The translations under genes were made by a program, and so were the position numbers. A model generated the notes under the pieces. That model searched no databases. It was given only the letters and a program-made list of their open reading frames with translations, and was not told the origin of the DNA. This document shows, one piece after another, positions 2,556 to 58,753 of a stretch of DNA of 64,000 bases. The first letter of the stretch is position 1. Every line of letters starts with the position of its first letter. This DNA is from Candidatus Bathyarchaeota archaeon B24 (GTDB taxonomy: Archaea; Thermoproteota; CALKCG01; B24). Where the stretch lies: positions 2,485 through 66,484 of the forward strand of contig LUCB01000012.1 in NCBI GenBank assembly GCA_001593865.1, in the 5' to 3' direction.

Positions 2556-2630
2556 TGGACCGGGCGGGATTCGAACCCGCGACCTCCCGGGTGCAAACCG
2601 GGTATTCATACCAGGCTGAACTACCGGCCC
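2556..2630 (-). tRNA. tRNA-Ala (anticodon TGC), intron-less, CCA not encoded
   Basis: Hand-folded cloverleaf: acceptor GGGCCGG/CCGGTCC with G3:U70, anticodon loop TTTGCAC, T-arm GCGGG-TTCGAAT-CCCGC, discriminator A. Confidence 0.9.
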
Positions 2631-2732: not shown

Positions 2733-4730
2733 TTGACCGTAGCGGGGAGAAATCGTTTAAAGATTAAGAGGGTCATAAGTTTACTGCTGGTGGTTGCTAT
2801 AGCCTATTTGGTAGGTTATCTCTCATATACGAACCTGGTCACACGTCAGCCAGGCGGAAACACGGAGCCCTTCGTCGTGTGGCCTGGTAAACCTCTCGAG
2901 AGGATCTACAAGGATACCGTCCCAGACGAGCGGCGTGTGGGCCAGCCCCTAGAGGTCTGGTGTGCGAGGAACGAGTATGAGGGATGCGTTTTCGGGGTAA
3001 GGGCTAATGTGGACGTTCACGGGCTCAGGCTAGAGGCGACGGACCTGGTATCCGAAAACGGACGCATATCCAAGGAGAACATTCGGCTTAGCTTCATAGG
3101 GTTTATACCCGTCCCCAAGAACACGCCCGACACGCCTGAGGAGGAGCTTGAGAGGATAGCTCCGTTCGACGCCCCAGACCCGCTTCTAGACGTAGAGACC
3201 TTAGATGTGAAAGGTGGTGAAACCCAGCCCTGCTACTTCCTAGTATACGTGCCTAAAGACGTCGAGCCCGGTGAGTACCGTGGAAACGTAACGGTCTCGT
3301 CCCGGGAGGGAGAGGCTTCTTTAGAAGTCGTCGTGCACGTGTATCCGATCACGCTACCAGACCGTAGAAGCCTCTACGTTACCAACTGGTTCTCCCTCGA
3401 CAGGATAGCGTCGGCCTACCACGTTCAGCTTTGGTCTGAAGACTTCTGGACGGTCTTCGAGAAGTGGATAGCCATGATGGCTGAATACCGTCAGAACGTC
3501 TTCTGGGTACCCATAGATACGGTTAAGGTCTCGGCTGGGGAAGACGGCTACAGCTTCGACTTCTCGAGGTTCGACCGGTACGTCGAACTCCTATTCAAAT
3601 ACGGCGCGGATAGGATCGAGATAACCCACGTAGCCGGTTTCAAAAAGTGGGGAAGCGCCGAGATAGCCCTAAGAGGATTCGAAGTAACCTACCCTGGAGG
3701 CGTCACGAAGACCGAGGACGGGTCTAAAATACTACCCCACCTTCTCCCCGCTTTAGAGCGGCATCTAGAGGCGAAAGGCTGGCTCGACAAGGCGATGATA
3801 CACATAGCCGACGAGCCTACGGAGGACGGCTTAGAGGCTTGGATCAACGTCTCCAAGCTCGTCCATGAGTACGCCCCTAGGGTCAGGAGGATCGACGCTA
3901 TCGAAACCGTCGGGTTCGAGGGCTATCTAGAGGTTTGGGTTCCGACTCTCCAGCACTTCGACGACTGGATGGATGAATACGTTAAGGCCATGGAGGAGGG
4001 CTACGAAGTCTGGTTCTACACCTGCTGCAACCCCACAGGCCGGTATCCGAACAGGTTCCTCGACTATTCTCTCCTGAAGACTAGGATTCTCCACTGGATA
4101 AACTACGCCTACGGCTTGAAGGGGTATCTGCACTGGGGCTTCAACTGGTGGGGTGAAGACCCGTTCGGCGAGCCGAACCCGAAGCTGCCGCCTGGTGATA
4201 CGCACATATCCTATCCTGGGGAAAAAGGCCCCATACCCAGTCTAAGGCTCGAGGCTATGCGTGACGGGCTTGAAGACTACGAGTACCTCAAGCTTCTGGA
4301 GGAGGAGATCGTAAACGTCAAGCATAGGCTTGGTGGGAGGGCTCTCGCCCTACCGTTCGAGAGGAGGGCTCTTGAAATATGTAGACGAGCCGTACCTAGC
4401 ATCACCGACTACACGAGAGACGCCGACTTCCTCATGAAGGTCAGAGACGACATAGTGAAGGAGATCCTAGAGGTTCGAAGCCGACCTCTGGCTCTGGTTT
4501 TGACTGTACCCCCGGAGTGGAAGCCCATCGTCAGAGGACCGTTCATGATCATAGTGAGAGGTGTATGCGAAAACGGCTCGTATGTCGAGGTGCAGGGTAA
4601 GCAGGTCGAGGTACGCGACGGATACTTCTCCACGTACACGTATCCCACACGCGACGGGGAAATAGTAATCAAGATAGTTAAAGACGGGCAGGAGAAGATA
4701 ATACGTAGAAAGTTTAAACTGGTCTTCTAA
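2733..4730 (+). CDS. Large membrane-anchored/secreted hypothetical protein (N-terminal TM helix; possible glycoside-hydrolase-like central domain; C-terminal beta-sandwich)
   Basis: 665-aa ORF with N-terminal hydrophobic anchor and Trp/Tyr-rich central region (WFYTCCNPTGRYPNRF...). No confident family assignment. Confidence 0.45.
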   Translation: MTVAGRNRLKIKRVISLLLVVAIAYLVGYLSYTNLVTRQPGGNTEPFVVWPGKPLERIYKDTVPDERRVGQPLEVWCARNEYEGCVFGVRANVDVHGLRLEATDLVSENGRISKENIRLSFIGFIPVPKNTPDTPEEELERIAPFDAPDPLLDVETLDVKGGETQPCYFLVYVPKDVEPGEYRGNVTVSSREGEASLEVVVHVYPITLPDRRSLYVTNWFSLDRIASAYHVQLWSEDFWTVFEKWIAMMAEYRQNVFWVPIDTVKVSAGEDGYSFDFSRFDRYVELLFKYGADRIEITHVAGFKKWGSAEIALRGFEVTYPGGVTKTEDGSKILPHLLPALERHLEAKGWLDKAMIHIADEPTEDGLEAWINVSKLVHEYAPRVRRIDAIETVGFEGYLEVWVPTLQHFDDWMDEYVKAMEEGYEVWFYTCCNPTGRYPNRFLDYSLLKTRILHWINYAYGLKGYLHWGFNWWGEDPFGEPNPKLPPGDTHISYPGEKGPIPSLRLEAMRDGLEDYEYLKLLEEEIVNVKHRLGGRALALPFERRALEICRRAVPSITDYTRDADFLMKVRDDIVKEILEVRSRPLALVLTVPPEWKPIVRGPFMIIVRGVCENGSYVEVQGKQVEVRDGYFSTYTYPTRDGEIVIKIVKDGQEKIIRRKFKLVF

Positions 4731-4830: not shown

Positions 4831-4916
4831 ATGAAGCTATACGATTAAACCGGGTTTAAAGGGTTTCTCTGGGTGAGATAAGCTCTTAAACCCCTAGCCT
4901 ATATGGGTTTATCCTA

Positions 4917-5699
4917 ATGACGTTTCCAGTGTTGTCTGGCGCCTCAAGGTCGAGAAAGATAGGGTTAGCTGCCTCCTTCTCCGCCCTCTACGGTCTCTTC
5001 AGAGTCGCACCGACTTTCCCTATAGTAGGCTTATCGGGAGCATACTTCCCGCTATCAGACGTTTTACCCCCGGTATACGGGCTTCTCTTAGGCCCAGAGT
5101 TAGGGTTCATAGTGGTGTTCACCGGGACACTCCTAGCCCTACTGCTCGGCAAGCCCCCCATCTTCCTAGGCCTAGACTTCATCCCTGCATCCATGAACAC
5201 CGTCGTAGTCGGTCTCGCCGCTGAGGGGATGTTCCTCAGGGCAGCCCTCCTATACGCGGTTGTTTTAGCCGTATTCATCATCCACCCCGCGTCCCCAAGG
5301 ATGGTAGACGTTCCTCTAAGCTCTCTGACTCTACCCATACCGTTCCACTGGATGCATCTACTAACCATACTCATAGCGACACCGCCGGTCAGTAAACGGT
5401 TAGCCAGATGGCTTAACCCGGTGGGCGAGTCTCCGAAGTCTTTTCTCTCGCTCTTCAGCCTATCTCTTTTAGGAACCCTATGCCAACACTCCTCCGGAAG
5501 CGTACTGTGGGAGACCATATACGGATACGTGTTAAACGCGTTAACGCCTGAAGAGTTTAAGACCATATGGTCCACGGTGTTCTGGCTCTACCCGGCCGAG
5601 AGAATACTATTGGCGTTAACCTCGACAGTCTTAGGGATCTCCATATTGAAGATTCTAACCAAGCTCCAGGGTAACGTATCTAACCCTCCTCCCCGATGA
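4917..5699 (+). CDS. Polytopic membrane protein, function unknown
   Basis: 260-aa ORF with multiple hydrophobic segments. Confidence 0.45.
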   Translation: MTFPVLSGASRSRKIGLAASFSALYGLFRVAPTFPIVGLSGAYFPLSDVLPPVYGLLLGPELGFIVVFTGTLLALLLGKPPIFLGLDFIPASMNTVVVGLAAEGMFLRAALLYAVVLAVFIIHPASPRMVDVPLSSLTLPIPFHWMHLLTILIATPPVSKRLARWLNPVGESPKSFLSLFSLSLLGTLCQHSSGSVLWETIYGYVLNALTPEEFKTIWSTVFWLYPAERILLALTSTVLGISILKILTKLQGNVSNPPPR

Positions 5700-6795
5700 G
5701 CTTCGCCTCGATTATGTTCGCGAACGCTATCACACCGGCCGTTAAAGCGTAGTCCGTGGCTATGGTCACGCCTGGACAGAGGTCGACCACGAGGTCGGCG
5801 AACCGGTAGATTCCAAGGGGAATCCCCACCCTCGAGCCTACCATGACGTTAACCCTTCTACGGGCCTGTAGAAGCTTATAGATCTCGTCTGCAACCTTCG
5901 GCACCGGCTCACCCTCCGGCTCGAACACTATGATCGGCTCCCTCCTCCTCTCCCTAACGAAACCGTAGATATCTTGGAGATGCACCTGCACCTTGTGCAC
6001 ATCCCTACCGTATGCGCGTTTCTGAATCTCGAAGCGGCTTCTAATGCCCTCGAAGACGCCGTTTAAGAAGTGTCTTAAACTGTCGGCATCCGTAAGCCCG
6101 ACCGGAGTTACGACAAGCTCTTTAACCTCGAAGGTCTGAGCCTCCCTACCGACCCTGACCCCCATCTCCCTAGACGCGTTGGGAGGTCCTAGGTACGGTA
6201 TGTGGGCGACAGCGACCTTCCGTATGAAATCTAACACAGCTGGCTTCCCGGGTCTAAGCTTCCTCCACTCCATCCTACCGTCTAAAAGGCTTACGGCCGC
6301 ATGATCCCCTAGTATCTCGACCTGAACTATCTTGTCTGGGTATCTCAGGTTTACCGACGCGCCTGTAACCTCCTTAACCACAGCACCTGCCCTGATGTTA
6401 ACGTCTACGCTCGTATAGCCTCGTCTTCCTCTTCTAACGGTTCTGACGGCGAAGCTCTCGTCAGCCCCTATACGGCCGTCTACGACTCTCTTGGCAGCCT
6501 CTACGATGCTATCTATATCCGACGGAACCCACTCCTCGACGGGTATAACCCTCTCAGCCTCCGGGACCTCGCTTCTGATCCTATCCACCACCTCGCTCCT
6601 TTCACCGTCGCCACAGACCAGTACAATACCTGGATAGCCGTTGGGTTTAGCCACACACCTGACACCCACGGTCTCCTCTATAACCGAAGCAGCGACCTCC
6701 TCCATACCGAGGACTGTTTTAACTATGGCTAAAACCCTCTCGCAAGGCATGAAACCCCCTCCCGAGGTTTCAGGGTATATGCCAAGGCTCGACAA
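5680..6795 (-). CDS. Conserved hypothetical protein; C-terminal region resembles a SPOUT-type (trefoil-knot) methyltransferase motif; possible RNA-modification enzyme
   Basis: Glycine-rich C-terminal segment MVGSRVGIPLGIYRFADLVVDLCPGVTIATDYALTAGVIAFANII is reminiscent of the SPOUT SAM-binding knot. Overlaps and is co-directional with tiaS. Confidence 0.3.
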   Translation of the reverse strand: MSSLGIYPETSGGGFMPCERVLAIVKTVLGMEEVAASVIEETVGVRCVAKPNGYPGIVLVCGDGERSEVVDRIRSEVPEAERVIPVEEWVPSDIDSIVEAAKRVVDGRIGADESFAVRTVRRGRRGYTSVDVNIRAGAVVKEVTGASVNLRYPDKIVQVEILGDHAAVSLLDGRMEWRKLRPGKPAVLDFIRKVAVAHIPYLGPPNASREMGVRVGREAQTFEVKELVVTPVGLTDADSLRHFLNGVFEGIRSRFEIQKRAYGRDVHKVQVHLQDIYGFVRERRREPIIVFEPEGEPVPKVADEIYKLLQARRRVNVMVGSRVGIPLGIYRFADLVVDLCPGVTIATDYALTAGVIAFANIIEAKLIGEEG

Positions 6796-8095
6796 ACCCG
6801 TATCTCATACCTTTCTTCTCCTGCCCGTATCTCGAATACGGTTTGGTCAGGTGGCGGTGAGCCCTAGGAGGCGGTATGTATAAACCTGGCTTAACATCTC
6901 TAGGCAGCTCGACCTCGAGTTTACGGGCCTTAGGGTCTCTAAACCCGCATTTCCTACACCTAAACCCTTTACCACGTCCCATCGACTTCATGGTCGATAG
7001 GCATTTAGGACACTTCGGGTTCCTATACTCGACTTTTTTAGCGAGCTCGACTATCCTAAGCTTCTCGAGGTTCACGGTTAAACCACTATCTAACGGCCGG
7101 ACCCCTCCGTATACCTCGACGACGTCTCCAGGTATGAGCTTCCTAGCGATGTCTCTAAACCCGCCTGTAGGCTCGTAAGCCGCGCAGTCGAAAACCTCGC
7201 CCTTAAACGATACCCTGAATATCACGTGGCCACCCGGTATCGTGTATGGCTTGCTGTAAACCACCGCCCTGAAGGCCACAGCCCTATACGGCTTAACCTC
7301 GCCGGGCTCGTCTATCCACCTCAGGTGGCTATCCGTACCCTGGTTCGACCTGAATATCACCCAACGCTCTATAGGCTCTCCGACTTTCACGATCTTCATA
7401 GCCTTTAGGAGCGTATAGGGATCCTCCCCCCTTATACCATATAGAACAGGGTCCGGTCCTCTAGGCGTTATCAACACCCGCCCGGTCTCCGGGTCTAGGT
7501 TGTCGAACGTCCTGGGTCTAGTCGCCCTATCCATCTCAGCGACGCTCTCTTCCGAAACCATCCTAGGCTTACCCCTATACTCGACGACCCTGTAGGTTAA
7601 CAACTCATACGTGTGGTCGCCCGTAAGCTCCTCGCCCACGGCCGCCATGGCGCCGACGACGCCTCGGAAATCGCCGTAGGCGAAGACCTCCATCCCGCAT
7701 CTACCGGCTACCTTTAAAGCATAACCGACGTCGACGACATCATAGAGTGCTCTCCGGGATAATGCCTTAACCTCCTCCGGAACAGGGCCGGTCAGAAATA
7801 CGACGGCGGGGTCAACATACTCGATTCCTAGCTGAGAGTTCTCCTCGACGGTTCTAAGGACCTCGCTTCTAATCCTATCGACGAGCTGAGGCTCAACCTT
7901 GATTCTCAGGGCTATTGCACCGTTCCCACGGGTCTTCCAAGGAATATTGGGGTTAAGCCTGATGAGGTTCGGATAGTCTAGGAACTCTACGCCAAGCTTG
8001 CTGAGCCTCTCGACTAGGAGCGCCGCCACGTAGGTTGTGCAGCCTCCCTGCATCGAATCTGTATCGTCGATCCCCACGTGTAAGGTCAAAGCCAT
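6770..8095 (-). CDS. tiaS: tRNA(Ile2) 2-agmatinylcytidine synthetase TiaS
   Basis: N-terminal HVGIDDTDS kinase-like motif, length about 440 aa, C-terminal zinc ribbon CPKC...CRKCG, as in archaeal TiaS. Confidence 0.85.
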   Translation of the reverse strand: MALTLHVGIDDTDSMQGGCTTYVAALLVERLSKLGVEFLDYPNLIRLNPNIPWKTRGNGAIALRIKVEPQLVDRIRSEVLRTVEENSQLGIEYVDPAVVFLTGPVPEEVKALSRRALYDVVDVGYALKVAGRCGMEVFAYGDFRGVVGAMAAVGEELTGDHTYELLTYRVVEYRGKPRMVSEESVAEMDRATRPRTFDNLDPETGRVLITPRGPDPVLYGIRGEDPYTLLKAMKIVKVGEPIERWVIFRSNQGTDSHLRWIDEPGEVKPYRAVAFRAVVYSKPYTIPGGHVIFRVSFKGEVFDCAAYEPTGGFRDIARKLIPGDVVEVYGGVRPLDSGLTVNLEKLRIVELAKKVEYRNPKCPKCLSTMKSMGRGKGFRCRKCGFRDPKARKLEVELPRDVKPGLYIPPPRAHRHLTKPYSRYGQEKKGMRYGFVEPWHIP

Positions 8096-8242
8096 GGCAT
8101 ACCCTCAGCCCACAGCCTAAATTTGGAGAGAAACACTGTTAGAATGTGAACCCCCTCAGATTAATACTTTCCCTCTTATCAAGAGTTAAGGTTAACAGGA
8201 AGAGTGTGGCGCCTACAACCTACCTAAAAAATCTTATAAACG

Positions 8243-9025
8243 GTGAAAATATGTAAATTACCTATGGGGTTTGAAGAGCTTAAAGCGGAAAAGCTTGCAG
8301 AAGCGATATCTGTCGCCGAAGAATTTGCGTCGAAGTTAAAACGGAAAGGAGTTGTTGGAATCGTATTCTTAGGTGGAATCGCAAGAGGTTATTTCGATAA
8401 GTTTTCAGACATCGACATCATCATTTTTAAAGAGAAAAAGGCTGAGTTAGGGATGAGGCGCGAAGATGAAATCGAGTTCAAAGGATTTAAGATCGACTAT
8501 GAGATTACAAACTATGAGGATAAGCTGAAATCTGAATGGGACATTGTGGAAAGGTGGGCTTTCTCTAAAGCAAAGGTCTTTTATGATCCACAGGGTAAAA
8601 TCAAAGCTTTGATCGATATGAAAGTCCGTCTTAAGGAAGAAGAGAGAAGATGGATGATAATAGAAGGTATGACCCAGTCTGAGTGGTATTGTAACTACTG
8701 TTCAGAATCTTGGATTTACAGAAATGATGTCCTGAGTGCGCATCGCTCCATCAATCTTGCCTTAGAATATTTGATGAAAGCTCTCTTTGGATTAAATAAT
8801 CAACTTCTTCCTAGTGAAAAGTGGTTAATGTACTTGGTGCAAAGGTTAAAATGGTTACCAAGGGGTTTTAATGAAAAATTAAAAGAAATACTTCTTATCA
8901 GAGAGTTCTCTATCAAAGAGCTTCAAAGACGTAGGAATGCGTTAAATTATCTTTGGAAGCAAATGCTACCAAGAGCTGAAAAGGAGGTTGGAATGAGATT
9001 TGATGAATTTAAAAGATTGGTATGA
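8243..9025 (+). CDS. Kanamycin-nucleotidyltransferase-like protein: minimal NTase domain fused to a HEPN-like helical C-terminal domain; probable real start at ATG 8264
   Basis: NTase motif GGIARG...SDIDIIIF; C-terminal R-x6-H (RNDVLSAH) HEPN-like motif. The gene body is markedly more AT-rich than flanking DNA. A TATA-like TTATAAA lies about 25 nt upstream of ATG 8264. Confidence 0.6.
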   Translation: MKICKLPMGFEELKAEKLAEAISVAEEFASKLKRKGVVGIVFLGGIARGYFDKFSDIDIIIFKEKKAELGMRREDEIEFKGFKIDYEITNYEDKLKSEWDIVERWAFSKAKVFYDPQGKIKALIDMKVRLKEEERRWMIIEGMTQSEWYCNYCSESWIYRNDVLSAHRSINLALEYLMKALFGLNNQLLPSEKWLMYLVQRLKWLPRGFNEKLKEILLIREFSIKELQRRRNALNYLWKQMLPRAEKEVGMRFDEFKRLV

Positions 9026-9103
9026 ATAAAAATCCAGGTAAGCTTCTGTGTTCAATAGCGCTCGTCTCCCCTCCGAAGTCAGAGAATTCTCTTAGTAGTG
9101 CTG

Positions 9104-9520
9104 TCATGAACTGGCTGTTCTCTTCGGTAAAATTATTTTGTCCCCCTCTACTCGTCCCCCATCTCTAGTGAGCCTCCTTCTAAGCTCGGATAAGTGCCGC
9201 TTAATATTCAACTTGTCCAGTATGACATGCCCGGTCATCACGGCTGAGAAGACGAGAGGGGAACGGTAAACCTCTTCATCGAGTTCCCGAACATCGACGT
9301 TGAACACGTTCACGATCAATCCCCTACCCTCCACCGGTGTACCCTTGTGGATAGCCAGTAGGTCGTAGTCGCTCAATATGTTATAATCGCCTCTAGCCCT
9401 CGAGCCGAACAATAAAAGGGTGACCTCTAGCTTAGAGGCCTCATCTAAAACTTCTCTGAATAGAGCCTCTCCCCTAGACTTCAGCCTCTCTAAAAGCACG
9501 GCTACACTCATTGAAAACAA
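9104..9520 (-). CDS. Minimal nucleotidyltransferase (MNT), antitoxin-type partner of HEPN
   Basis: GSRARGDYNILSDYDLLAI (GS-x9-13-DxD) NTase motif; 138 aa; overlaps the upstream HEPN gene. Confidence 0.7.
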   Translation of the reverse strand: MFSMSVAVLLERLKSRGEALFREVLDEASKLEVTLLLFGSRARGDYNILSDYDLLAIHKGTPVEGRGLIVNVFNVDVRELDEEVYRSPLVFSAVMTGHVILDKLNIKRHLSELRRRLTRDGGRVEGDKIILPKRTASS

Positions 9521-25764: not shown

Positions 25765-25838
25765 GGGCCCGTGGCGTAGCTGGATAGCGCGTCGGCCTGC
25801 GGAGCCGGAGGTCCCGGGTTCGAATCCCGGCGGGCCCA
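25765..25838 (+). tRNA. tRNA-Arg (anticodon GCG), intron-less, CCA not encoded
   Basis: Hand-folded: acceptor GGGCCCG/CGGGCCC, anticodon stem TCGGC/GCCGG, loop CTGCGGA, T-arm CCGGG-TTCGAAT-CCCGG, discriminator A. Confidence 0.9.
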
Positions 25839-30324: not shown

Positions 30325-31518
30325 TTACTGGCCGATCCCCAGGGTGTTACCTATCCCCGCCAGCAGAATAGTGTCACCTATCTTCGTCTTCTCCCTTATA
30401 AGGCGTCTAACCCGTTCGACAGCCTTCTCGACGCCCGCATAGATCTCGCGTCTCATAGGAGATATCGCGTCGTATAGAGACTCTTTGATGGCGACCGCGT
30501 AGAGAGGAACGCGAAACCTTTTGGCAACCTCCTCGATCTTAAACTTTTCGACACCTATACCCCCTATAGCCGCGCCCACACCCTCAGCAACCTCGCCGAC
30601 TTTTTCACCCTCAAGCTTTAACGCAGCATCGACCATTATGACAGCTGTCACATCGCCTCTGCTACCCAGGATCTTCTCGACCGCCTCACCCGGTTTGCCT
30701 ACGTTACCACCCGGCCCGAGTGCTTTGACGACTATAAGCCTCCTATTATCCACTTCAACCTCGGCCATAACCGTGTCTTCGGCTATGACCCTCTTCTCGG
30801 CACCGTACATAAACCTAGCCGCCACAAGACTTCCTGCCCCGTCTCCTATCGGTTGACCGTCCCTGAACGCCTTGACCGCAGCCGACAGAGCCTTTGCCTC
30901 TTGAAGAACCATAGGCAGGATGGCGTCGGCCTGGTAGATCACGAAGAGGCTCATAGTCTTCTTACCCAGCAGGTAGTAGTGTCTGATTACCCTATATATC
31001 CGGTCTAAAGAACTGCCGGCTTCAAGAAGTCCCTCGAGATTTCTAAGTCGAGCATCATCTACGCCAGGTACAAGGCTCTTGATCTCCCATCTAAGTCTCT
31101 CCTCCCTCGTGTCGAGGATGTGCTCGATCTTACCCACTATACCAAACGGGTCTAGAGAAGTAGGCTCTATCCAGAAATATTCGAGTAATCTGTCGACCTC
31201 AGCCTCAAGACCAGGTTTGTTGGAAAGCACCTTAATGGTCTCGATGATCGTCTGCCTAGCCTCATCCCTCATCCTCTTGATCTTATGTAAACCTATCTCG
31301 ACGTTCCTAAGCATAACCCAGATCTGAAACTTTTGACCGTAAAGTATGCTGAAGAGAAACAGGGCTATGAATATGGCTTGAAAGACCAGCCCGAGTATGT
31401 CTCCTTGCGTACCGGCGCCTGAGACCTGCTGAAGCGTAACACCCAACCCCGGCTCTAAACTAAACATGTGAAGCCCTTCCAAATATAAATCTTCAGAGAA
31501 TAGTACGGTTGCCGGCAT
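30325..31518 (-). CDS. Membrane-anchored conserved archaeal protein (DUF1512-like); true start probably at a downstream Met, since the listed start overlaps the 5S rRNA
   Basis: N-terminal TM segments followed by a soluble Gly/Ala-rich domain; family assignment tentative. Confidence 0.4.
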   Translation of the reverse strand: MPATVLFSEDLYLEGLHMFSLEPGLGVTLQQVSGAGTQGDILGLVFQAIFIALFLFSILYGQKFQIWVMLRNVEIGLHKIKRMRDEARQTIIETIKVLSNKPGLEAEVDRLLEYFWIEPTSLDPFGIVGKIEHILDTREERLRWEIKSLVPGVDDARLRNLEGLLEAGSSLDRIYRVIRHYYLLGKKTMSLFVIYQADAILPMVLQEAKALSAAVKAFRDGQPIGDGAGSLVAARFMYGAEKRVIAEDTVMAEVEVDNRRLIVVKALGPGGNVGKPGEAVEKILGSRGDVTAVIMVDAALKLEGEKVGEVAEGVGAAIGGIGVEKFKIEEVAKRFRVPLYAVAIKESLYDAISPMRREIYAGVEKAVERVRRLIREKTKIGDTILLAGIGNTLGIGQ

Positions 31519-31628
31519 CCCCCACCCCTCCTAGGGTCTCCCACTAGGGGGAGAGGGAGACGTGGCGTGGTTTGACTTCCGTGTTCGAAATGGGTACGGG
31601 TCGAACCCACGCCCTATGACCGGCAACC
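31507..31628 (-). rRNA. rrf: 5S ribosomal RNA (stand-alone, not linked to 16S/23S)
   Basis: Minus strand reads GGTTGCCGG...CCCATTTCGAACACGGAAGTCAAACC...CCGGCAACC. The universal 5S loop C/helix III motif (CCGAACACGGAAGU) is present, and helix I closes with a 9-bp terminal pairing GGTTGCCGG/CCGGCAACC; about 122 nt. Confidence 0.85.
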
Positions 31629-32959: not shown

Positions 32960-33748
32960 TCAGGCTCCGAACCTTCTCCGCCGCCTCTGATACGTTCTTA
33001 TAGCCCTGAGAAGGTCTATCTCACGGAATTCAGGCCAATAGACATCTAAAAAGCAAAGCTCACTGTAGGCGCTCTGCCATAGCAGGAACCCGCTAAGCCT
33101 CTCCTCACCGCTCGTCCTTATTATCAGGTCAGGCTCAGGATTCGGGAGATGGGCTGTGTAAAGGTGTTTCTGAAAGAGCTCCTCGTTTATATCCTCAGGT
33201 TTAAGACGTTCCTCAGCTATAAGCTTGGCTATGCTCCTAACGGCGTCGATTATCTCCCTCCTACCGCCGTAGGCTAAGGCTATGTTGAGCCACCTCTCTC
33301 CATAATGCGAAGTCTTATCCTCAACCTCCTCGGCGGTTTTCCTAACGCTTTCAGGCAGGAGCTCAAGGGCGCCAAGAATCTTAATCCTGACCCTGTGCTC
33401 GTGGATATCTGGGTTATCGAGGAGCTGCTTTAGCTTCTCCTCGAAAAGCCTGAAAAGCTCCTCGACCTCTCGTCTAGGTCTCCTGAAGTTTTCGGTCGAA
33501 AACGCGTACAGGGTTATCGTTTTTACACCTAGGTCTAGGCACCATTTTAAAACGTCCTCGACTTTTTCAGCCCCAAACCTGTGTCCAAGCCATGGGGGAT
33601 ACCCGCGTTTAGAAGCCCATCTTCTGTTCCCATCGAGTATTATCCCGACGTGACCAGGTATAGCACCTTTCTTAACCTCCCGTCTAAGCCACCACTTATA
33701 GACCCTGTAAACTCCTATTATCTTTAGAAAGCCTCTAACCCAATCCAT
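32960..33748 (-). CDS. uppS: Undecaprenyl/di-trans,poly-cis-prenyl diphosphate synthase (cis-prenyltransferase)
   Basis: HVGIILDGNRRWA motif and ERLSGFLLWQSAYSEL C-terminal motif. Confidence 0.85.
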   Translation of the reverse strand: MDWVRGFLKIIGVYRVYKWWLRREVKKGAIPGHVGIILDGNRRWASKRGYPPWLGHRFGAEKVEDVLKWCLDLGVKTITLYAFSTENFRRPRREVEELFRLFEEKLKQLLDNPDIHEHRVRIKILGALELLPESVRKTAEEVEDKTSHYGERWLNIALAYGGRREIIDAVRSIAKLIAEERLKPEDINEELFQKHLYTAHLPNPEPDLIIRTSGEERLSGFLLWQSAYSELCFLDVYWPEFREIDLLRAIRTYQRRRRRFGA

Positions 33749-33853: not shown

Positions 33854-34996
33854 ATGCTCAACGTTATGGCCACCCTACCGCCTGGGTTCGAAGAGGAGGC
33901 TTGTAGAGAGCTTAGATGGTTCAATGTTAAAGTTCAGGAAGTCCGGGGTCTCCGAGGTAGGATATTCTTCGCATGCCCCGAGCCGGAGGTCGTTGAGCTG
34001 AACTATAGGTCAAGATGTCTCGAGAGGATCGTAGTTATCCTCCTCAGATGCGAGGTGGAGGGTCTTGAAGAGGTCTATAGACGCGTCAGAGGTTTAGAGT
34101 TCGGTCGTTGGATATCTAGCGGACAGAGCTTCGCGGTAAGGGCCTCCAGGATAGGCTCTCATCCGTATACGTCTATGGACATAGCCCGTGAAGCCGGGAG
34201 AGCGGTCATAGACAGCTACCTGTCTTCTAAAGGTGTTAGGTTAAAGGTTAACCTAGATGAGCCTGACGTGATCGTGAGGGTTTACCAGGTCAAAAACGAG
34301 TTGATAGTAGGCATAGACACGACGGGAGACTGGGCTCTGCATAAACGTGGCTACCGGGTCTACGACCACCCCGCTGCGTTAAACCCCTGTATAGCCTCCG
34401 CCATGATAATAGCCTCAAACTGGAAACCAAGCGATAGTCTGATAGACCCCATGTGCGGAGGCGGCACGATCCCGATAGAGGCTGCTTTAAAAGGTTTAAA
34501 CATCCCACCGGCTAAATTTAGGAGAAAACCCCTAGCCATATCAAACCTTAAGGTCTTTCAGGTGTATCTCGAAGCTTTTTCAGCTGAGGGGCTTTGCTCA
34601 GAGGGTTCCACGCTTGACATATGGGGTCTAGACATAAGCCCTAAACACGTAGCTGGCGCTGTTCAAAACTCCAAAGCCGCCGGTGTAGATAAGGTGATCA
34701 AGTTTCTAGTCGGGGATGCTACGAGGCTTAGGAGAATATTCGACAGAAGCTTCGACTTCGCCATAGTAAACCCGCCTTACGGGCTGAGGTCTTCGTCGCC
34801 CAGGGCTTTGAGGAAGCTTTACGATGGTCTAGCATCATCGATGGTTAGGCTTCTGGAGAAGCGTCTTGTAACCATAACCCATAGAGTCGGGACGATGCGT
34901 GAAGCCCTCTTATCAAACGGTTTCGAGATAGAGTTCGAAAAGCCTGTTAAACACGGAGACCTACCCTGCTGGGTTCTATCGGCTAGACCACCTTAA
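33854..34996 (+). CDS. THUMP-domain tRNA (guanine-N2) methyltransferase (Trm14/RlmL-like)
   Basis: N-terminal ferredoxin-like/THUMP region followed by a class I MTase with DPMCGGGT and NPPYG motifs. Confidence 0.7.
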   Translation: MLNVMATLPPGFEEEACRELRWFNVKVQEVRGLRGRIFFACPEPEVVELNYRSRCLERIVVILLRCEVEGLEEVYRRVRGLEFGRWISSGQSFAVRASRIGSHPYTSMDIAREAGRAVIDSYLSSKGVRLKVNLDEPDVIVRVYQVKNELIVGIDTTGDWALHKRGYRVYDHPAALNPCIASAMIIASNWKPSDSLIDPMCGGGTIPIEAALKGLNIPPAKFRRKPLAISNLKVFQVYLEAFSAEGLCSEGSTLDIWGLDISPKHVAGAVQNSKAAGVDKVIKFLVGDATRLRRIFDRSFDFAIVNPPYGLRSSSPRALRKLYDGLASSMVRLLEKRLVTITHRVGTMREALLSNGFEIEFEKPVKHGDLPCWVLSARPP

Positions 34997-35780
34997 CGGC
35001 GAACCTATCCCCTGGTTTAAGCCCGAAAAATCTGCTACCACTACCCATGTTAACGGCTAGCTCGAGCATGCGGAAGCTATCGACTATAGCCAACGGGGTG
35101 CCTGGGTCGACTTCTCCATAGGCTTCCACAAGCCTAACCTCAAACCTCTTCGAGCCTGTCTCCACGAGAAGACGGCTACCTCTACCGATGCTTAACGTTT
35201 TAAGCAGTTTCTCGTCTATATTTGTGACCACGTTTCCGAACCCGTCGACGTAGAGGACTTCCCCGTAGATACATTCTCCTTTGAGCCTAGGTTTAGGAAA
35301 GCTGAGCTCGACGTAGCTTAGAGAAGGCTCCCCGAGATGCTCAGCCCTCTCTCCTATAGAGAGTCTAGCGGCGGCGGGGGCAAACAGGTCTCTACCGTGA
35401 AAGGTATGCGAAACCCACCCTATACGCACTTTATCCTCTAAGATTCTGTATACCCGTCTCAGGCCGAGTCTCCTCGCCGCAGGTATCAGAAGACCGTTGT
35501 CTGGTCCTACGAGGAGACCCCTATCACACTCCACTATCAGGGGTCTTCTAGCGGTTCCGACACCTGGGTCGACCACCCCTACGTGTATGCTTCCTTCTGG
35601 AAAATACTCTACAATATGGGCCAGTATGAAAGCCCCCATCCTGACGTTAAACTTATCTATGGAGTGAGTTATGTCGACTATCACAGCTTCAGGGTTTATC
35701 CTCAATATCACGGCCTTCATGGCGGCTGGGTATGGGTCTGACAATCCGAAGTCTGTAAGCAGGGTTATTATTTTTCCCAT
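34983..35780 (-). CDS. S-adenosyl-L-methionine hydroxide adenosyltransferase (DUF62, SalL/fluorinase family)
   Basis: N-terminus ITLLTDFGLSDPYPAAMKAVIL is the DUF62 signature. Confidence 0.8.
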   Translation of the reverse strand: MGKIITLLTDFGLSDPYPAAMKAVILRINPEAVIVDITHSIDKFNVRMGAFILAHIVEYFPEGSIHVGVVDPGVGTARRPLIVECDRGLLVGPDNGLLIPAARRLGLRRVYRILEDKVRIGWVSHTFHGRDLFAPAAARLSIGERAEHLGEPSLSYVELSFPKPRLKGECIYGEVLYVDGFGNVVTNIDEKLLKTLSIGRGSRLLVETGSKRFEVRLVEAYGEVDPGTPLAIVDSFRMLELAVNMGSGSRFFGLKPGDRFAVKVV

Positions 35781-35832
35781 GTATTCTTCACCGGGATTTT
35801 TAGACGGAGAGGCTTCTTAAAAATAAATCCTA

Positions 35833-35860
35833 GTGATACATAAAATGATACATAGGTATC
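35833..35860. promoter_or_regulatory. Operator-like motif in a divergent promoter: direct repeat TGATACATA x2, the second copy forming the palindrome TGATAC-ATAG-GTATCA
   Basis: Read directly from the sequence; lies between the divergent DUF62 gene and the ESCRT-III-like operon within AT-rich promoter DNA. Confidence 0.4.
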
Positions 35861-35987
35861 ATCTTTTACTAGAGTTTTAGTCTAAAAATACCCTTAGACC
35901 GTTAAACTCCTTGCCCTCTAAAGCGGCTATTCCACAGCTTTCTTTAAACAATCCATTAAAGACGTTTCAACCCTCCTAGTTCATGAG

Positions 35988-36608
35988 GTGTTTCCTACGT
36001 CCATGAAAAAATGGGAGAAAGGTGGGAGGATATTTCAAAGAACCCCTCTGAAGAAGAGGCTTACCATGGCTATACACAGGCTTAAAGTACAGTATTCTAG
36101 GGTCGAAGGAGCAGCTATGCGGATGAGTAGACACGAGAAGGAGCTCTTCGAGAAATGTGTGAACGCTCAGATGAAAGGGGACTCTGCCAGGGCGGCGCTC
36201 TACGCGAACGAATGCGCCGAAGCACGTAAAATGTCTAAGATAGTTTTAGGGGCTCAGCTTGCTCTTGAGAAAGCTATACTCAGGCTTGAAACTGTTCACC
36301 AGTTGGGTGAAACGGCCGCCGCGATAATCCCCGTGGCCCGTATACTTAAAGCGGTTCAGAAAGACCTAGCCGGGGTCATACCTGAAGTCAGCTACGAGAT
36401 CGGGGTCATAAGCGATGAGATCGGTAAGATGGTCGTCGAAGTCGGTGAAGCAACCGGTATGGTCGTCGACATGGAAGCCGCCAGCGAGGAGGCTAAGAAG
36501 ATTCTCGAAGAGGCCTCCGCTGTGGCCGAGCAGAGGCTTAAGGAGAAGCTTCCAGAGCTCCCTACGATACCTACCCCAGACACGTCTACACCGACACCTG
36601 GGCATTAG
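35988..36608 (+). CDS. ESCRT-III/Snf7-family protein (CdvB/CHMP2-like); real start possibly Met 36066 (MAIHRLKVQ...)
   Basis: Basic N-terminal helical hairpin and acidic C-terminus. KELFEKCVNAQMKGDSARAALYANECAEARKMSKIVLGAQLALEKAILRLETVHQLGETAAAI follows the Snf7-domain pattern (KK..GN.DAARI.A...VR.RK.......A.LE.V..RL.T....), and ISDEIGKMVVEVGE is an alpha-4-like acidic segment. Confidence 0.55.
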   Translation: MFPTSMKKWEKGGRIFQRTPLKKRLTMAIHRLKVQYSRVEGAAMRMSRHEKELFEKCVNAQMKGDSARAALYANECAEARKMSKIVLGAQLALEKAILRLETVHQLGETAAAIIPVARILKAVQKDLAGVIPEVSYEIGVISDEIGKMVVEVGEATGMVVDMEAASEEAKKILEEASAVAEQRLKEKLPELPTIPTPDTSTPTPGH

Positions 36609-36656
36609 ACCCGAAGGTTTAAGTCAGATCCTCCACCACAATTTTTCGTTAGATAG

Positions 36657-37508
36657 ATGTCTAAATTGGAGAACCGGCGTGGTATCTTAGTGTCGAAGCT
36701 TAGAGAGGTGTCTGCTAGACGTAGGAATCTCCTAGAAGAGATTAGGAGGCTCAGAAAGAAACGTGATGAACTCAACGAGGATGCTAGACGGATAGTCGAG
36801 GAGCTCAAGGCCTTAAGGACAGGTTACAGGCGTCTCCGCTCGGAAATATCTAGCCTAAGAGATAAGCTCAAAGAGGAATATGCCAGGCTTAAGGAGGTCA
36901 GGGACCTCATCCAACGGGCGCGCCTCAAGATGGAGAAGGTTGCTAAGCCGAAAACACCGCTTAGGAAGCTTAAGAACCGTATGGAGGAGCTTGAGTGGGT
37001 GCTTCAGACGTCGCCTACGGATCTAGAGATGGAGCGTAGAATAGCGAGTGAGATAGCTGAACTCCAGGTCGAGGTTAAAGCCCATGAGAAGATCAGAGAG
37101 CTTAAACAAGACCTGATGCGTCTCCGGGCGGTTCGAGAAGCCATTAAGCTCAGGATAAACTCGATTAAAAGTAGGATCGATGAGTTGAAAGATGAAAGGG
37201 ATAGGGTTAGACAGGCCATAACCGAGCTCGAGGAGCGGTATAAGGCGGTTAGGGAGAGAGCCGACGGTTTCCATCATGCATTGGTCGAGAAGCTTAACGA
37301 AGCTAAGACGTTAAGGGCCGAGGAGAAAGTTATAATCGAAGAGCTTAAGCAGATGGAGCTTGAGGAGCGGAAGATGGCTGAGGAAAAAGCCAAGGCGGTT
37401 TTAGCCGAGCTGGCTAGGAGGGCGTTAGACAAGCTGAGGAACGGCGGTAAAGTTACGGTCGAGGAGCTTAAGGCCATAGCTGAGGCTGAGGATATGGGGG
37501 TGATCTAG
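36657..37508 (+). CDS. Long coiled-coil protein (highly charged, heptad repeats throughout), unknown function
   Basis: 283 aa, Glu/Lys/Arg/Leu-rich with continuous heptad periodicity; 48 nt downstream of the Snf7-like gene, and its stop overlaps the next gene's start. Confidence 0.5.
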   Translation: MSKLENRRGILVSKLREVSARRRNLLEEIRRLRKKRDELNEDARRIVEELKALRTGYRRLRSEISSLRDKLKEEYARLKEVRDLIQRARLKMEKVAKPKTPLRKLKNRMEELEWVLQTSPTDLEMERRIASEIAELQVEVKAHEKIRELKQDLMRLRAVREAIKLRINSIKSRIDELKDERDRVRQAITELEERYKAVRERADGFHHALVEKLNEAKTLRAEEKVIIEELKQMELEERKMAEEKAKAVLAELARRALDKLRNGGKVTVEELKAIAEAEDMGVI

Positions 37509-38681
37509 ATGCCTAAACCCGACGAGCGACCTATGAGGTTTCTTGTGATATGTGTCGATAGAGACGACGACTTAGGGGTTAAAACGGGGATAAAGTCCCC
37601 TGTCATCGGTAAGGAGAACGTCCTCGAGGCGGGTCTGAAGCTGATAATGACCGACCCTGAGGAGGCCGATGCTAACACGATGTTCGAGGCCGTGCGTATA
37701 ATGGAGAACCTACAGGCCAAGGATGAGGAGAACGTTTACGAAGTCGTGGTTTTAACAGGCTCTAGGGAGGATGATATCGAAGCCGATAGGAGGATCTCTG
37801 AGGGGTTGAGACAGGTTTTAGAGGTTTACCCGGCAGATGCAGCTATACTCGTCTCAGACGGCTACACGGACCAGCAGGTCTTCCCGATAATACAGTCGCA
37901 GGTCCCGATAATCTCCGTGAGGCGTTTCGCCGTTAAACACAGCCAATCCCTCGAGACCAGCTGGTACATAATCACCAGGTACCTGAGTATGCTTCTCCAA
38001 GACCCGAGGTATACCAAATGGACGCTTGGATTACCCGGCATAATAGTCCTGTTCCTCTCGATACTCTACGTTCTAACGCTCTTCTATCCCGAGATCCCGC
38101 TACTCCCATATACCACCGCGGCGGTTTTGATAATCACCGGGTTGACTCTATTCGTCAAGGGATTCGAGATAGACAAATCCATAAGCTACGTTTTCTCGGA
38201 GGTGGCTTCCAGACCGTCGATATTGATAAGGGTCTTCGGCTACGTAGCCGGTATAATAATATGCGGCCTAGGGATATCCCAGGGCTTTTCATCGGTAGCG
38301 GAGAACGTGCCCTTAGGAAGCCTTACAGACTTCCAGATGTTTATGAAATACTCTAACGTGATAATCGCGAGTTTTATCGAGGGCGTCTCAAGCTTCTTCC
38401 TCATGGGATTGTCGGTCATGTTAGCAGGGAGAGCGTTGTTCGATTACATACATAGAAACCTGAGGCTTCTGATAGATATAGTAGGCTTGATATCCGTCTT
38501 CATGATAATAGAGACGGTTATCCAGTCTACCCCCATACTCAGAGAACCTCCCCAGTCGATAACAAGCCCAGAAGTTATGGGTTTCCTACTATGGATATTG
38601 CTCGCGATAACGATGATAGCGGCCTCATCCCTCATAGCCCATAGGCTAAGGGAGAAGCTGGCTAAAACCTGGAGGGATTAA
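37509..38681 (+). CDS. DUF373-like integral membrane protein with N-terminal cytoplasmic domain
   Basis: N-terminal soluble domain (FLVICVDRDDDLG...) followed by about 7 TM helices; start codon overlaps the stop of the coiled-coil gene (TAGATG). Confidence 0.5.
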   Translation: MPKPDERPMRFLVICVDRDDDLGVKTGIKSPVIGKENVLEAGLKLIMTDPEEADANTMFEAVRIMENLQAKDEENVYEVVVLTGSREDDIEADRRISEGLRQVLEVYPADAAILVSDGYTDQQVFPIIQSQVPIISVRRFAVKHSQSLETSWYIITRYLSMLLQDPRYTKWTLGLPGIIVLFLSILYVLTLFYPEIPLLPYTTAAVLIITGLTLFVKGFEIDKSISYVFSEVASRPSILIRVFGYVAGIIICGLGISQGFSSVAENVPLGSLTDFQMFMKYSNVIIASFIEGVSSFFLMGLSVMLAGRALFDYIHRNLRLLIDIVGLISVFMIIETVIQSTPILREPPQSITSPEVMGFLLWILLAITMIAASSLIAHRLREKLAKTWRD

Positions 38682-38687
38682 TTCGAT

Positions 38688-39470
38688 ATGGCTGGTCTGT
38701 GGAGAGCCGTTATACTGGGTTCGGGCTTCGAAGATGCTGTAAAGCCCCTAGAGGTCTATCGGGTCGATACGCCTTTCGGCTCTGCGACTACTGTCTACCG
38801 CGTCTCCTTGGAAAGCCTCGACGTTCTGGTGCTTCCTAGGCATGGTCCTAGGCATGAGAAGCCCCCCCACAAAGTCGACTATAGGGCTAACCTATGGGCT
38901 TTGAAGAAGCTCGGGGCCGAGAGGGTGTTGGCGGTCAACACGGTCGGGGCCATAAACCCCGTCATGAGGCCAGGAGACCTAGCGGTTCCCCACGACCTTA
39001 TAGACTTCACGAAGAGCCGAGCCTACACGTTCTACGACTCCGCACCGGTCGTCCATATAGACTTCACGGAGCCATACTGCAGGGAGCTTAGGAGGCTTCT
39101 CATAGAGTCTGCGAGTAAACTCTCCGGGAGGGTCTGGGACAGAGCCGTATACGTATGCACGGAGGGGCCTAGGTTTGAAACCCCCGCGGAGATCAGGATG
39201 TTCAGAATCCTAGGGGGAGACATAGTCGGTATGACAGGTTGCCCTGAGGCTTCCTTGGCTAGAGAGCTTGGCATTTGCTATGCATCCCTATGTCTCATAT
39301 CTAACATGGCCGCCGGACTACAGAGCCGCATAACCTCGAAAGAGGTCTCGGAGGTCGCATCTGAAAAGAGAGGGGTAATCCTTGATACGTTAAAAGACGT
39401 GTTGAAACGCATGCCCAGGGATCGAAGCTGCGGATGTAGCCTACAGAAGGGCGCTGAATTCAAGGTTTAA
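38688..39470 (+). CDS. mtnP: S-methyl-5'-thioadenosine phosphorylase / purine nucleoside phosphorylase (PNP/MTAP family)
   Basis: VILGSGF...PRHG..HE.PPH.V.YRAN..AL..LG...V.NTVG pattern of MTAP; 260 aa. Confidence 0.8.
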   Translation: MAGLWRAVILGSGFEDAVKPLEVYRVDTPFGSATTVYRVSLESLDVLVLPRHGPRHEKPPHKVDYRANLWALKKLGAERVLAVNTVGAINPVMRPGDLAVPHDLIDFTKSRAYTFYDSAPVVHIDFTEPYCRELRRLLIESASKLSGRVWDRAVYVCTEGPRFETPAEIRMFRILGGDIVGMTGCPEASLARELGICYASLCLISNMAAGLQSRITSKEVSEVASEKRGVILDTLKDVLKRMPRDRSCGCSLQKGAEFKV

Positions 39471-58303: not shown

Positions 58304-58753
58304 ATGGAACTTGATAACGTAGACAAGGGGATTTTAAGCTTTCTTCAAGATAACGCCAGGTCTAGCTTCGTGAAGATCGCTAGGAAGATCGGTGTGAGCG
58401 AGGGAACGGTGCATCTGAGGGTTAGAAAGCTCTTAGAAAAAGGGATCATACGCGGTTTCTATGCGATAGTGAACCCTGAGAAGGTGGGCCTAGCTATCAG
58501 GGCTTTCATAGGCCTACAGGCTGAGCCTGCTATGTATGAAAACATCTTGAAGAAGCTGGCCGAGATGGACAGCGTCTACGCGATATACGATGTAACGGGC
58601 GAGTACTCGGCGCTGATAGACGTTAAAGTCAGGAATAAGGAAGAGCTCACCAAGGTCATAGACTTGGTCGGCTCTATACCCGGCGTCAAAACCACCGTGA
58701 CCATGCTGGTTTTAAGGGTTATAAAGGAGAAGTTTAAGGTCGAAATACCGTAA
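58304..58753 (+). CDS. lrp: Lrp/AsnC-family transcriptional regulator
   Basis: N-terminal HTH (DKGILSFLQDNARSSFVKIARKIGVSEGTVHLRVRKL) and C-terminal RAM domain; 149 aa. Confidence 0.85.
   Translation: MELDNVDKGILSFLQDNARSSFVKIARKIGVSEGTVHLRVRKLLEKGIIRGFYAIVNPEKVGLAIRAFIGLQAEPAMYENILKKLAEMDSVYAIYDVTGEYSALIDVKVRNKEELTKVIDLVGSIPGVKTTVTMLVLRVIKEKFKVEIP

Follow-up and report, generated by a model that had tools for sequence, protein, structure and literature searches.

A CdvB-type ESCRT-III gene beside an older DUF7121–DUF373 gene string in Candidatus Bathyarchaeota archaeon B24: probably a chance neighborhood

Do genes that stand in a tight row necessarily work together? The question is raised by a locus of Candidatus Bathyarchaeota archaeon B24, located at positions 35,833 to 38,681 of a stretch of 64,000 nucleotides (nt) (assembly GCA_001593865.1, contig LUCB01000012.1, positions 2,485 to 66,484), which was analyzed as a whole and is referred to below as the window. 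Three genes on the same strand encode an Snf7/ESCRT-III (CdvB-type) protein, a coiled-coil protein and a DUF373 membrane protein, and a repeated, palindromic element lies upstream of them. An initial annotation, made from the DNA sequence, regarded the three as a non-canonical ESCRT-III locus and possibly an undescribed membrane-remodelling or envelope-stress system. The present analysis indicates that the locus is probably an ordinary CdvB-type gene placed beside an older, unrelated gene string, i.e., a chance neighborhood and not a new membrane-remodelling system. A three-gene system is unsupported because the arrangement has one evolutionary origin within a syntenic block, the first gene is kin to cdv clusters, the coiled-coil–DUF373 pair is distributed more widely than the triplet, and marks of a transcriptional boundary lie in the first spacer.

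The first gene (36003..36608, plus strand) encodes a protein of 201 amino acids (aa). Its ATG at 36003 is favored by the homologs and by an identical 201-aa database copy (P0001) over an alternative GTG start at 35988, which gives an open reading frame (ORF) of 206 aa. The profile search that the initial annotation had proposed upheld its Snf7/ESCRT-III assignment: the Pfam Snf7 model (PF03357) scored 30.0 bits against a gathering score of 27.3, with ORF residues 28–195 of 206 aligned to profile positions 2–167 of 171. The NCBIfam models CdvB1/B2 (E = 1.4e-55), CdvB (E = 2e-43) and CdvB3 (E = 4e-11) were also matched, all under the equivalog cut-offs of these models, which are built on Sulfolobales proteins. 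The CdvB1/B2 equivalog NF041005 was aligned over nearly its full length with 188 bits, whereas its cut-off is 350 bits, and the protein is thus best described from its sequence as a CdvB-family relative and not as an equivalog of Sulfolobales CdvB1/B2. The best solved relatives by sequence are CdvB2 (9s97; E = 6.9e-45, residues 12–192) and CdvB (9s9j; E = 4.8e-31).

The architecture of the protein agrees with that of CdvB1/CdvB2 (ESCRT-III-1/-2) of Sulfolobales in its length of about 200 aa, its near-full-length alignment with CdvB2, and its basic N-terminal and acidic C-terminal halves, which had been noticed at the outset and correspond to isoelectric points (pI) of 10.1 for residues 1–110 (22 K+R, 11 D+E) and 4.5 for residues 111–201 (9 K+R, 17 D+E). 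The C-terminus carries an MIM2-like motif, LPELPTIPTP, and ends in KEKLPELPTIPTPDTSTPTPGH; the stretch beginning with KEKLPELPTIPTP lines up with CdvB2 and CdvB at their proline-rich ends, where KEKLPELP of the window corresponds to KEKFPSLP (CdvB2) and ELLPDLP (CdvB). A winged helix is absent from the 201-aa protein, as from CdvB1/CdvB2, whereas the long paralogs of related cdv clusters have about 70 extra residues, and in a neighbor-joining tree the window clade nests among the short CdvB proteins, apart from these long paralogs. In the Sulfolobales paralogs, CdvA is bound through the winged helix, and the Vps4 MIT domain through MIM2 (PMC11796394). Because of the profile and structure-sequence matches, the MIM2-like end and the missing winged helix, the protein is assigned here as a short CdvB1/B2-like ESCRT-III subunit; it differs from its Sulfolobales counterparts in the score given above and in its Bathyarchaeia host.

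Neither CdvA nor Vps4 was detected in the 64-kb window by tblastn with the CdvA and Vps4 proteins of another Bathyarchaeia lineage (L006), in agreement with the earlier remark that neither cdvA nor cdvC/Vps4 is adjacent. The locus thus shares with the canonical cdvA-cdvB-cdvC operon a CdvB-family gene, but the neighbors of this gene are DUF7121, DUF373 and 5′-methylthioadenosine phosphorylase (MTAP) genes. To call it non-canonical is nevertheless an overstatement, because CdvB paralogs away from cdvA/vps4 are normal in Sulfolobales, whose CdvB1/B2-type genes are usually dispersed in this manner.

The distribution of the relatives is more informative. Homologs of the Snf7 protein were named Bathyarchaeia, Hecatellales or Nezhaarchaeales. 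Wherever the homolog is at least 86% identical (86–90%; L007, L087-89, L096, L102-106), synteny extends over the entire surrounding block of about 10 genes, in the order UppS (minus strand), [Trm14], S-adenosylmethionine (SAM) hydrolase (minus strand), Snf7, coiled-coil, DUF373, MTAP, further genes, and M24 peptidase (minus strand). The three-gene order therefore does recur in related genomes, but its recurrence is confined to one narrow clade of approximately four to five species-level lineages. The next relatives are 43–58% identical, and every locus examined at or below 58% is without the three-gene neighborhood. In four of these lineages (L006, L092/93, L094/95, L108/109), the ortholog instead heads a cluster of cdvB (short), cdvA, cdvB (with a winged helix, about 275 aa) and vps4; in two Hecatellales-type lineages (L098/99, L100/101), the cluster reads cdvB (short), cdvB (long) and vps4, with cdvA not detected. 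These related Bathyarchaeia clusters show the source of the window's gene, and in this respect it differs from the Sulfolobales genes: its sister-lineage ortholog is the first gene of a cdv cluster and not a dispersed paralog.

Several further features of these clusters were recorded. The four-gene clusters extend over 6001-9493 (L006), 6001-9359 (L092), 6001-9398 (L094) and 4890-8214 (L108), with a short CdvB of about 205 aa. An AsnC-type helix-turn-helix regulator gene directly follows the cluster in L006 and L092, and its homolog in the window (approximately 58310-58660) is 29% identical. In L100, no Pfam match to CdvA was found in the cdvB-cdvB-vps4 cluster, and genes for a CetZ-family tubulin and an SlaA-like S-layer protein (3287-4369 and 1-1780) are located a few kilobases upstream of it.

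The second gene (36657..37508, plus strand) encodes, as the initial annotation had stated, a 283-aa coiled-coil protein that begins 48 nt past the Snf7 gene, as both the coordinates and a nearly all-helical model attest. In an AlphaFold2 (AF2) model (predicted local distance difference test score, pLDDT, 92.8), helices span residues 2–94 and 123–261, with a short conserved knob (EWxIQT) between them and a small C-terminal helix, and the predicted fold is a long antiparallel helical hairpin. The protein itself matches the DUF7121 profile (PF23435) weakly, although over its full length (12.3 bits, E = 0.11, against a cut-off of 29), and it has few close relatives; its database homologs are annotated PF23435, and one carries the JGI name "uncharacterized coiled-coil DUF342 family protein". 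By contrast, its positional homologs match DUF7121 strongly, in 24 of 32 cases and with a best E of 6.6e-44. The protein shares with DUF7121/COG1340 proteins a length of about 280–300 aa, the central EWxIQT and a C-terminal KLKxGxK...EE motif, and it is taken on these sequence grounds to be a divergent DUF7121/COG1340 member, encoded by the fastest-evolving gene of the block. A Foldseek search with the AF2 model and a PDB profile search returned generic coiled coils only (SMC arms, chemoreceptors). In a distant lineage (L124, 5001-6781), the gene after DUF7121 encodes a GPN-loop GTPase (PF03029) and not DUF373.

The third gene (37509..38681, plus strand) encodes a typical DUF373 protein of 390 aa, with a full-length match to PF04123 (277 bits, E = 2.9e-82). 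The early description of a membrane protein with an N-terminal domain and about seven transmembrane (TM) helices was borne out: the AF2 model (pLDDT 83.8) has a beta-alpha-beta domain at residues 10–140 followed by helices at 147–388, and the hydropathy profile contains six to seven hydrophobic segments that would be TM helices, with the N-domain predicted to be cytoplasmic. Seven acidic residues of this domain (D17, D19, D21, D54, D93, D117 and D121) are invariant in 69 aligned DUF373 homologs. No specific structural relative of the protein was found, and fusions were not encountered among 775 representative clusters of DUF373, nearly all of which are 340–420 aa in length with one architecture; a single 714-aa member has no second Pfam domain. 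A literature search for DUF373, COG1340, DUF7121, COG2237 and Bathyarchaeia Cdv did not find a functional study.

What is unusual is not this protein but its surroundings, i.e., the Snf7 gene upstream and the displaced UppS gene. A scan with the DUF373 profile of one genome per GTDB species yielded 80 loci in Bathyarchaeia and Nitrososphaeria. In 31 of the 80, the coiled-coil gene immediately precedes DUF373 on the same strand, and in two more it is nearby; all are of Bathyarchaeia type and none is in Nitrososphaerales. Of the 70 loci with sufficient flanking sequence, 54 have the UppS gene directly after DUF373 on the same strand, in Bathyarchaeia as well as Nitrososphaeria (L008-L086), with or without an intervening MTAP gene, which many Bathyarchaeia have; in an annotated Nitrososphaerales example, the prenyltransferase gene starts 3 nt past DUF373. 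MTAP comes right after DUF373 in 18 of the 80 loci and occurs somewhere in the locus in 32. An adjacent Snf7 gene was found at one locus of the 80, that of L007, which belongs to the window's own clade. About 30 other Bathyarchaeia loci have coiled-coil–DUF373 without Snf7, and Nitrososphaeria have DUF373–UppS without either Snf7 or the coiled-coil gene. Because of these neighborhood counts, the conserved ancestral string is read as [DUF7121]-DUF373-[MTAP]-UppS, from which, in the window's clade, UppS would have been displaced to the other side and the opposite strand, with a CdvB gene placed in front. It might be speculated from the persistent DUF373–UppS link that DUF373 takes part in the metabolism of polyprenyl-phosphate lipid carriers or of the envelope.

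The DNA between the genes is consistent with two separate units. The Snf7–coiled-coil spacer is 37–48 nt in the lineages having it and has a conserved layout: a stop codon, (A/G)(C/T/G)(C/T)TTTAAGT, a C-rich stretch, and a run of five to seven T residues approximately 8–14 nt before the start codon. CTTTAAGT and the T5–T7 run are kept in all lineages with the Snf7–coiled-coil arrangement; in the window, the corresponding elements are TTTAAGT (36618-36624) and a T5 run (36642-36646), which are candidates for an internal promoter and an oligo-T terminator on the plus strand (36618..36646). Inspection of this spacer in the window and its relatives revealed no Shine-Dalgarno motif ahead of the coiled-coil start. 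Such motifs precede the other genes: a GAGG ahead of the Snf7 start (35985..35988, plus strand), kept in all relatives; GGGGGTGAT, within the 3′ end of the coiled-coil gene, for DUF373; and GGAGG at 38671, 13 nt upstream of the MTAP ATG. In archaea, transcription starts about 25 nt downstream of an A/T box and ends at oligo-T tracts, and first cistrons are often leaderless. Since the TATA-like box, the T-run and the missing Shine-Dalgarno motif fit this pattern, the likely units are Snf7 alone and coiled-coil–DUF373–MTAP, with MTAP probably last.

The single three-gene operon that the initial annotation had derived from the tight spacing is therefore doubtful in part. The coiled-coil and DUF373 genes are indeed in direct contact, but they abut (TAG followed immediately by ATG) and do not overlap as had been claimed; the inclusion of Snf7 is doubtful for the reasons just given; and the string does not end at DUF373, as MTAP follows after 6 nt with its own Shine-Dalgarno motif. 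The proteins have also diverged to unequal degrees: identity to the L007/L087 orthologs is 87–89% for Snf7, 76–78% for UppS, 65–66% for DUF373, 64–66% for MTAP and 48–49% for the coiled-coil protein, and the difference between the first and the last value implies very different constraint on the two proteins.

The upstream element (35834..35862) is a candidate transcription-factor operator. The direct repeat and palindrome that had been reported are present and exact: copies of TGATACATA stand at 35834 and 35846, TGATACATAGGTATCA spans 35846-35861, and neither recurs elsewhere in the window. The half-site TGATAC stands at 35834 and 35846 in direct orientation, 12 bp apart, and is inverted as GTATCA at 35856, which results in 7-bp arms, ATGATAC and GTATCAT, around ATAG. 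The 16-mer palindrome pattern is modestly unexpected (0.05 matches expected; at least one match in 5 of 100 shuffles), and no further copies of the palindrome were found in the 64-kb window. Alignment of the SAM-hydrolase/Snf7 intergenic regions across seven lineages revealed that the inverted repeat reads TGATAC-N16-GTATCA in the window, against ATAATACT-N13-15-AGTATTAT in its relatives, with a 22-bp centre-to-centre distance in both and one compensatory change (A:T to G:C) between them, whereas the internal direct copy of the half-site is confined to the window lineage. Because the symmetry is conserved, a transcription factor acting as a dimer or higher-order oligomer probably binds the repeat, and the earlier proposal of a plausible transcription-factor site gains from the position and symmetry kept in the relatives.

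Which gene the repeat serves is less straightforward. The nearest gene encodes the SAM hydrolase (34983..35780, minus strand), which is divergent from Snf7. An A/T-rich box, CTTAAAAATAAA (35816..35827), is invariant in all seven aligned lineages; lying 37 nt away from the minus-strand ATG of the SAM-hydrolase gene, it is a candidate TATA box of that gene, and the inverted repeat starts 5 bp further. The repeat is approximately 140 nt from the Snf7 start and approximately 80 nt upstream of a separate, invariant TTTAAAC box ahead of Snf7. There, the palindrome CTTTAA-N8-TTAAAG with TTTAAA inside (35942..35961, plus strand; 42–61 nt before ATG 36003) is identical in six lineages even though the flanking proteins are 60–78% identical, and this is a candidate Snf7 core promoter (TATA). 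The repeat adjoins the first A/T box, and this placement points to the SAM-hydrolase promoter as its main target. A stronger form of this view, i.e., that the repeat is no operator for the Snf7 string at all and either serves the SAM-hydrolase gene only or is a neutral local duplication, is a serious contender, although held at somewhat less than even strength. The distances to the two boxes, the lineage-specific direct copy and the modest palindrome statistics are all compatible with it, but a neutral origin is unlikely because position and spacing are conserved in all relatives, with one compensatory change. Furthermore, A/T boxes can act bidirectionally; if the CTTAAAAATAAA box fired rightwards, the repeat would lie between TATA and the start of a long-leader Snf7 transcript and could act on it.

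A resemblance to a known operator bears on the same point. The aCcr1-box of Sulfolobales promoters of cdvA and other division genes has the degenerate consensus [ATG][GA]T[AG][ATG]TAC (PMC9976878). All three half-sites fit it, but the window contains 41 sequences that do so, and the isolated matches ahead of other Bathyarchaeia cdv clusters are no more than chance would give. The element and the aCcr1-box/ribbon-helix-helix (RHH) operators of cdvA promoters have in common A/T-rich half-sites ending in TAC that are repeated and palindromic near a division-gene promoter, whereas the element of the window lies upstream of the Snf7 TATA-like box, beside the box of the neighboring gene, and no aCcr1 homolog came to light, no search aimed at one having been made. 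The resemblance is thus a lead only. A near-perfect AGTATTACT palindrome was observed upstream of the cdv cluster in L094 (approximately 5843), and other matches in L092 (approximately 5852) and L006 (approximately 5815), all of which may be due to chance. The small neighboring ORFs contain no DNA-binding domain. In the Snf7 leader (35970-35992), a CCTC-type stretch might pair with the GAGG motif in a hairpin, for which RNAalifold shows no real covariation.

Two rival accounts of the whole locus were weighed on this basis. A dedicated three-part membrane-remodelling module, in which the coiled-coil protein would be a CdvA-like adaptor connecting ESCRT-III to DUF373 and all three genes would be co-expressed under the palindromic operator, appears unlikely. 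The order has been kept in four to five lineages despite adjacent rearrangements, as such a module would require, but these lineages represent a single evolutionary origin in a fully syntenic block, and elsewhere the Snf7 orthologs are found in cdv clusters, coiled-coil–DUF373 without Snf7, and DUF373 without the coiled-coil gene. Short spacers, and coiled-coil and DUF373 genes that abut or overlap, would also be expected of it; the conserved box and T-run of the first spacer and the unequal conservation of the proteins argue against it. With no winged helix to bind CdvA, the Snf7 protein would have room for another adaptor, but the candidate was rejected as CdvA-like, since its match to Bathyarchaeia CdvA is coiled-coil noise (E = 0.027 over 69 residues). 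The other account is a PspA/Vipp1-like envelope-stress system with a stress-induced, membrane-protecting polymer in place of a division protein. PspA/Vipp1 and ESCRT-III constitute one superfamily, and this kinship and the neighboring membrane protein are all that speaks for it. No PspA_IM30 match was obtained, Snf7 being the only Pfam family at E ≤ 1; the NCBIfam models and the closest solved structures are those of CdvB proteins, and orthologs are located in clusters with cdvA and vps4. A PspA/Vipp1/IM30 assignment, as the initial annotation had envisaged, was accordingly discarded, and the account as a whole is highly improbable.

A chance neighborhood, the preferred reading, has points against it as well. 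T5 runs terminate partially in archaea, and read-through from Snf7 into the coiled-coil gene may occur; the promoter and terminator assignments derive from consensus resemblance and conservation, and Vps4 dependence and a cell-division role are what we infer for the short CdvB. The order Snf7–coiled-coil–DUF373–MTAP has outlived insertions of Trm14 and IS605 and a shift of the M24 gene, while the proteins have diverged to 48–78% identity, and survival through such local rearrangements is mild evidence of selection on the order. Moreover, a CdvB protein without a winged helix needs some recruiter, for which the neighboring coiled-coil protein is conceivable. These points would be accommodated if an ESCRT-III subunit had been captured by the DUF7121–DUF373 module, with the coiled-coil protein as a CdvA-independent adaptor to an envelope- or polyprenyl-phosphate-linked membrane protein; such a capture is regarded here as quite unlikely.

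The remaining genes around the locus are as follows. The SAM-hydrolase gene encodes a 265-aa SAM hydroxide adenosyltransferase/(R)-SAM hydrolase (SAM_HAT_N, E = 5e-55; SAM_HAT_C, E = 8.5e-24). It is convergent with the gene for Trm14 (tRNA m2G6 methyltransferase), with a 14-nt overlap of the 3′ ends (34983-34996), and Trm14 is not found at the corresponding position in the L007, L087 and L096 lineages. The MTAP gene (38688..39470, plus strand; 260 aa) matches TIGR01694 with 275 bits against a cut-off of 274.85. In L087 (8276-9498), L088 and L089, an IS605-type OrfB/TnpB gene and a small DUF7557 ORF are inserted just downstream of MTAP, evidence that one lineage of the clade was recently rearranged beside the conserved string. 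The cis-prenyltransferase (UppS family, PF01255) gene is located at 32960..33748 on the minus strand. Farther away, the 5S rRNA gene (31507-31627, minus strand) and the 5′ end of the longest DUF1512 ORF (30325-31518, minus strand) overlap; because related contigs have the DUF1512 gene called 17 codons shorter, the true start probably lies further downstream. Two tRNA genes (2556-2630, minus strand; 25765-25838, plus strand) and the 5S rRNA are the only known RNA families detected in the window, all outside the locus. The contig recurs in hydrothermal-vent metagenomes. A protein identical to the window's DUF373 protein is recorded for Candidatus Bathyarchaeota archaeon B24, and the lineage is Bathyarchaeia, as opposed to Thermoprotei in the strict sense.

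Taken as a chance neighborhood, the locus would join two unrelated units. The first would be a monocistronic short CdvB gene that landed between the SAM-hydrolase and coiled-coil genes in this clade as a moved or duplicated copy of the gene heading the cdv cluster. Its product would polymerize on the membrane in Cdv-type division or vesicle scission and would be disassembled, via the C-terminal MIM2-like motif, by a Vps4/CdvC encoded elsewhere; because the winged-helix domain is lacking, it would not bind CdvA directly. The second unit would be the older operon of DUF7121 coiled-coil, DUF373 and MTAP, ancestrally followed by UppS, with its own TATA-like box, a start without a Shine-Dalgarno motif, and translationally coupled internal genes.

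If the ESCRT-III subunit were captured by the DUF7121–DUF373 module after all, the locus would present an archaeal ESCRT-III subunit recruited in a new way and give a first clue to the function of DUF373 and DUF7121. If it is a chance neighborhood, as we consider probable, it would represent an ordinary CdvB paralog moved or copied out of the cdv cluster in one Bathyarchaeia lineage. The comparison also indicates that the short paralog, dispersed in Sulfolobales, is commonly part of the core cdv cluster in Bathyarchaeia. Finally, the DUF373–UppS link across two archaeal classes and the DUF7121–DUF373 link in Bathyarchaeia provide a testable lead on two families without known function.

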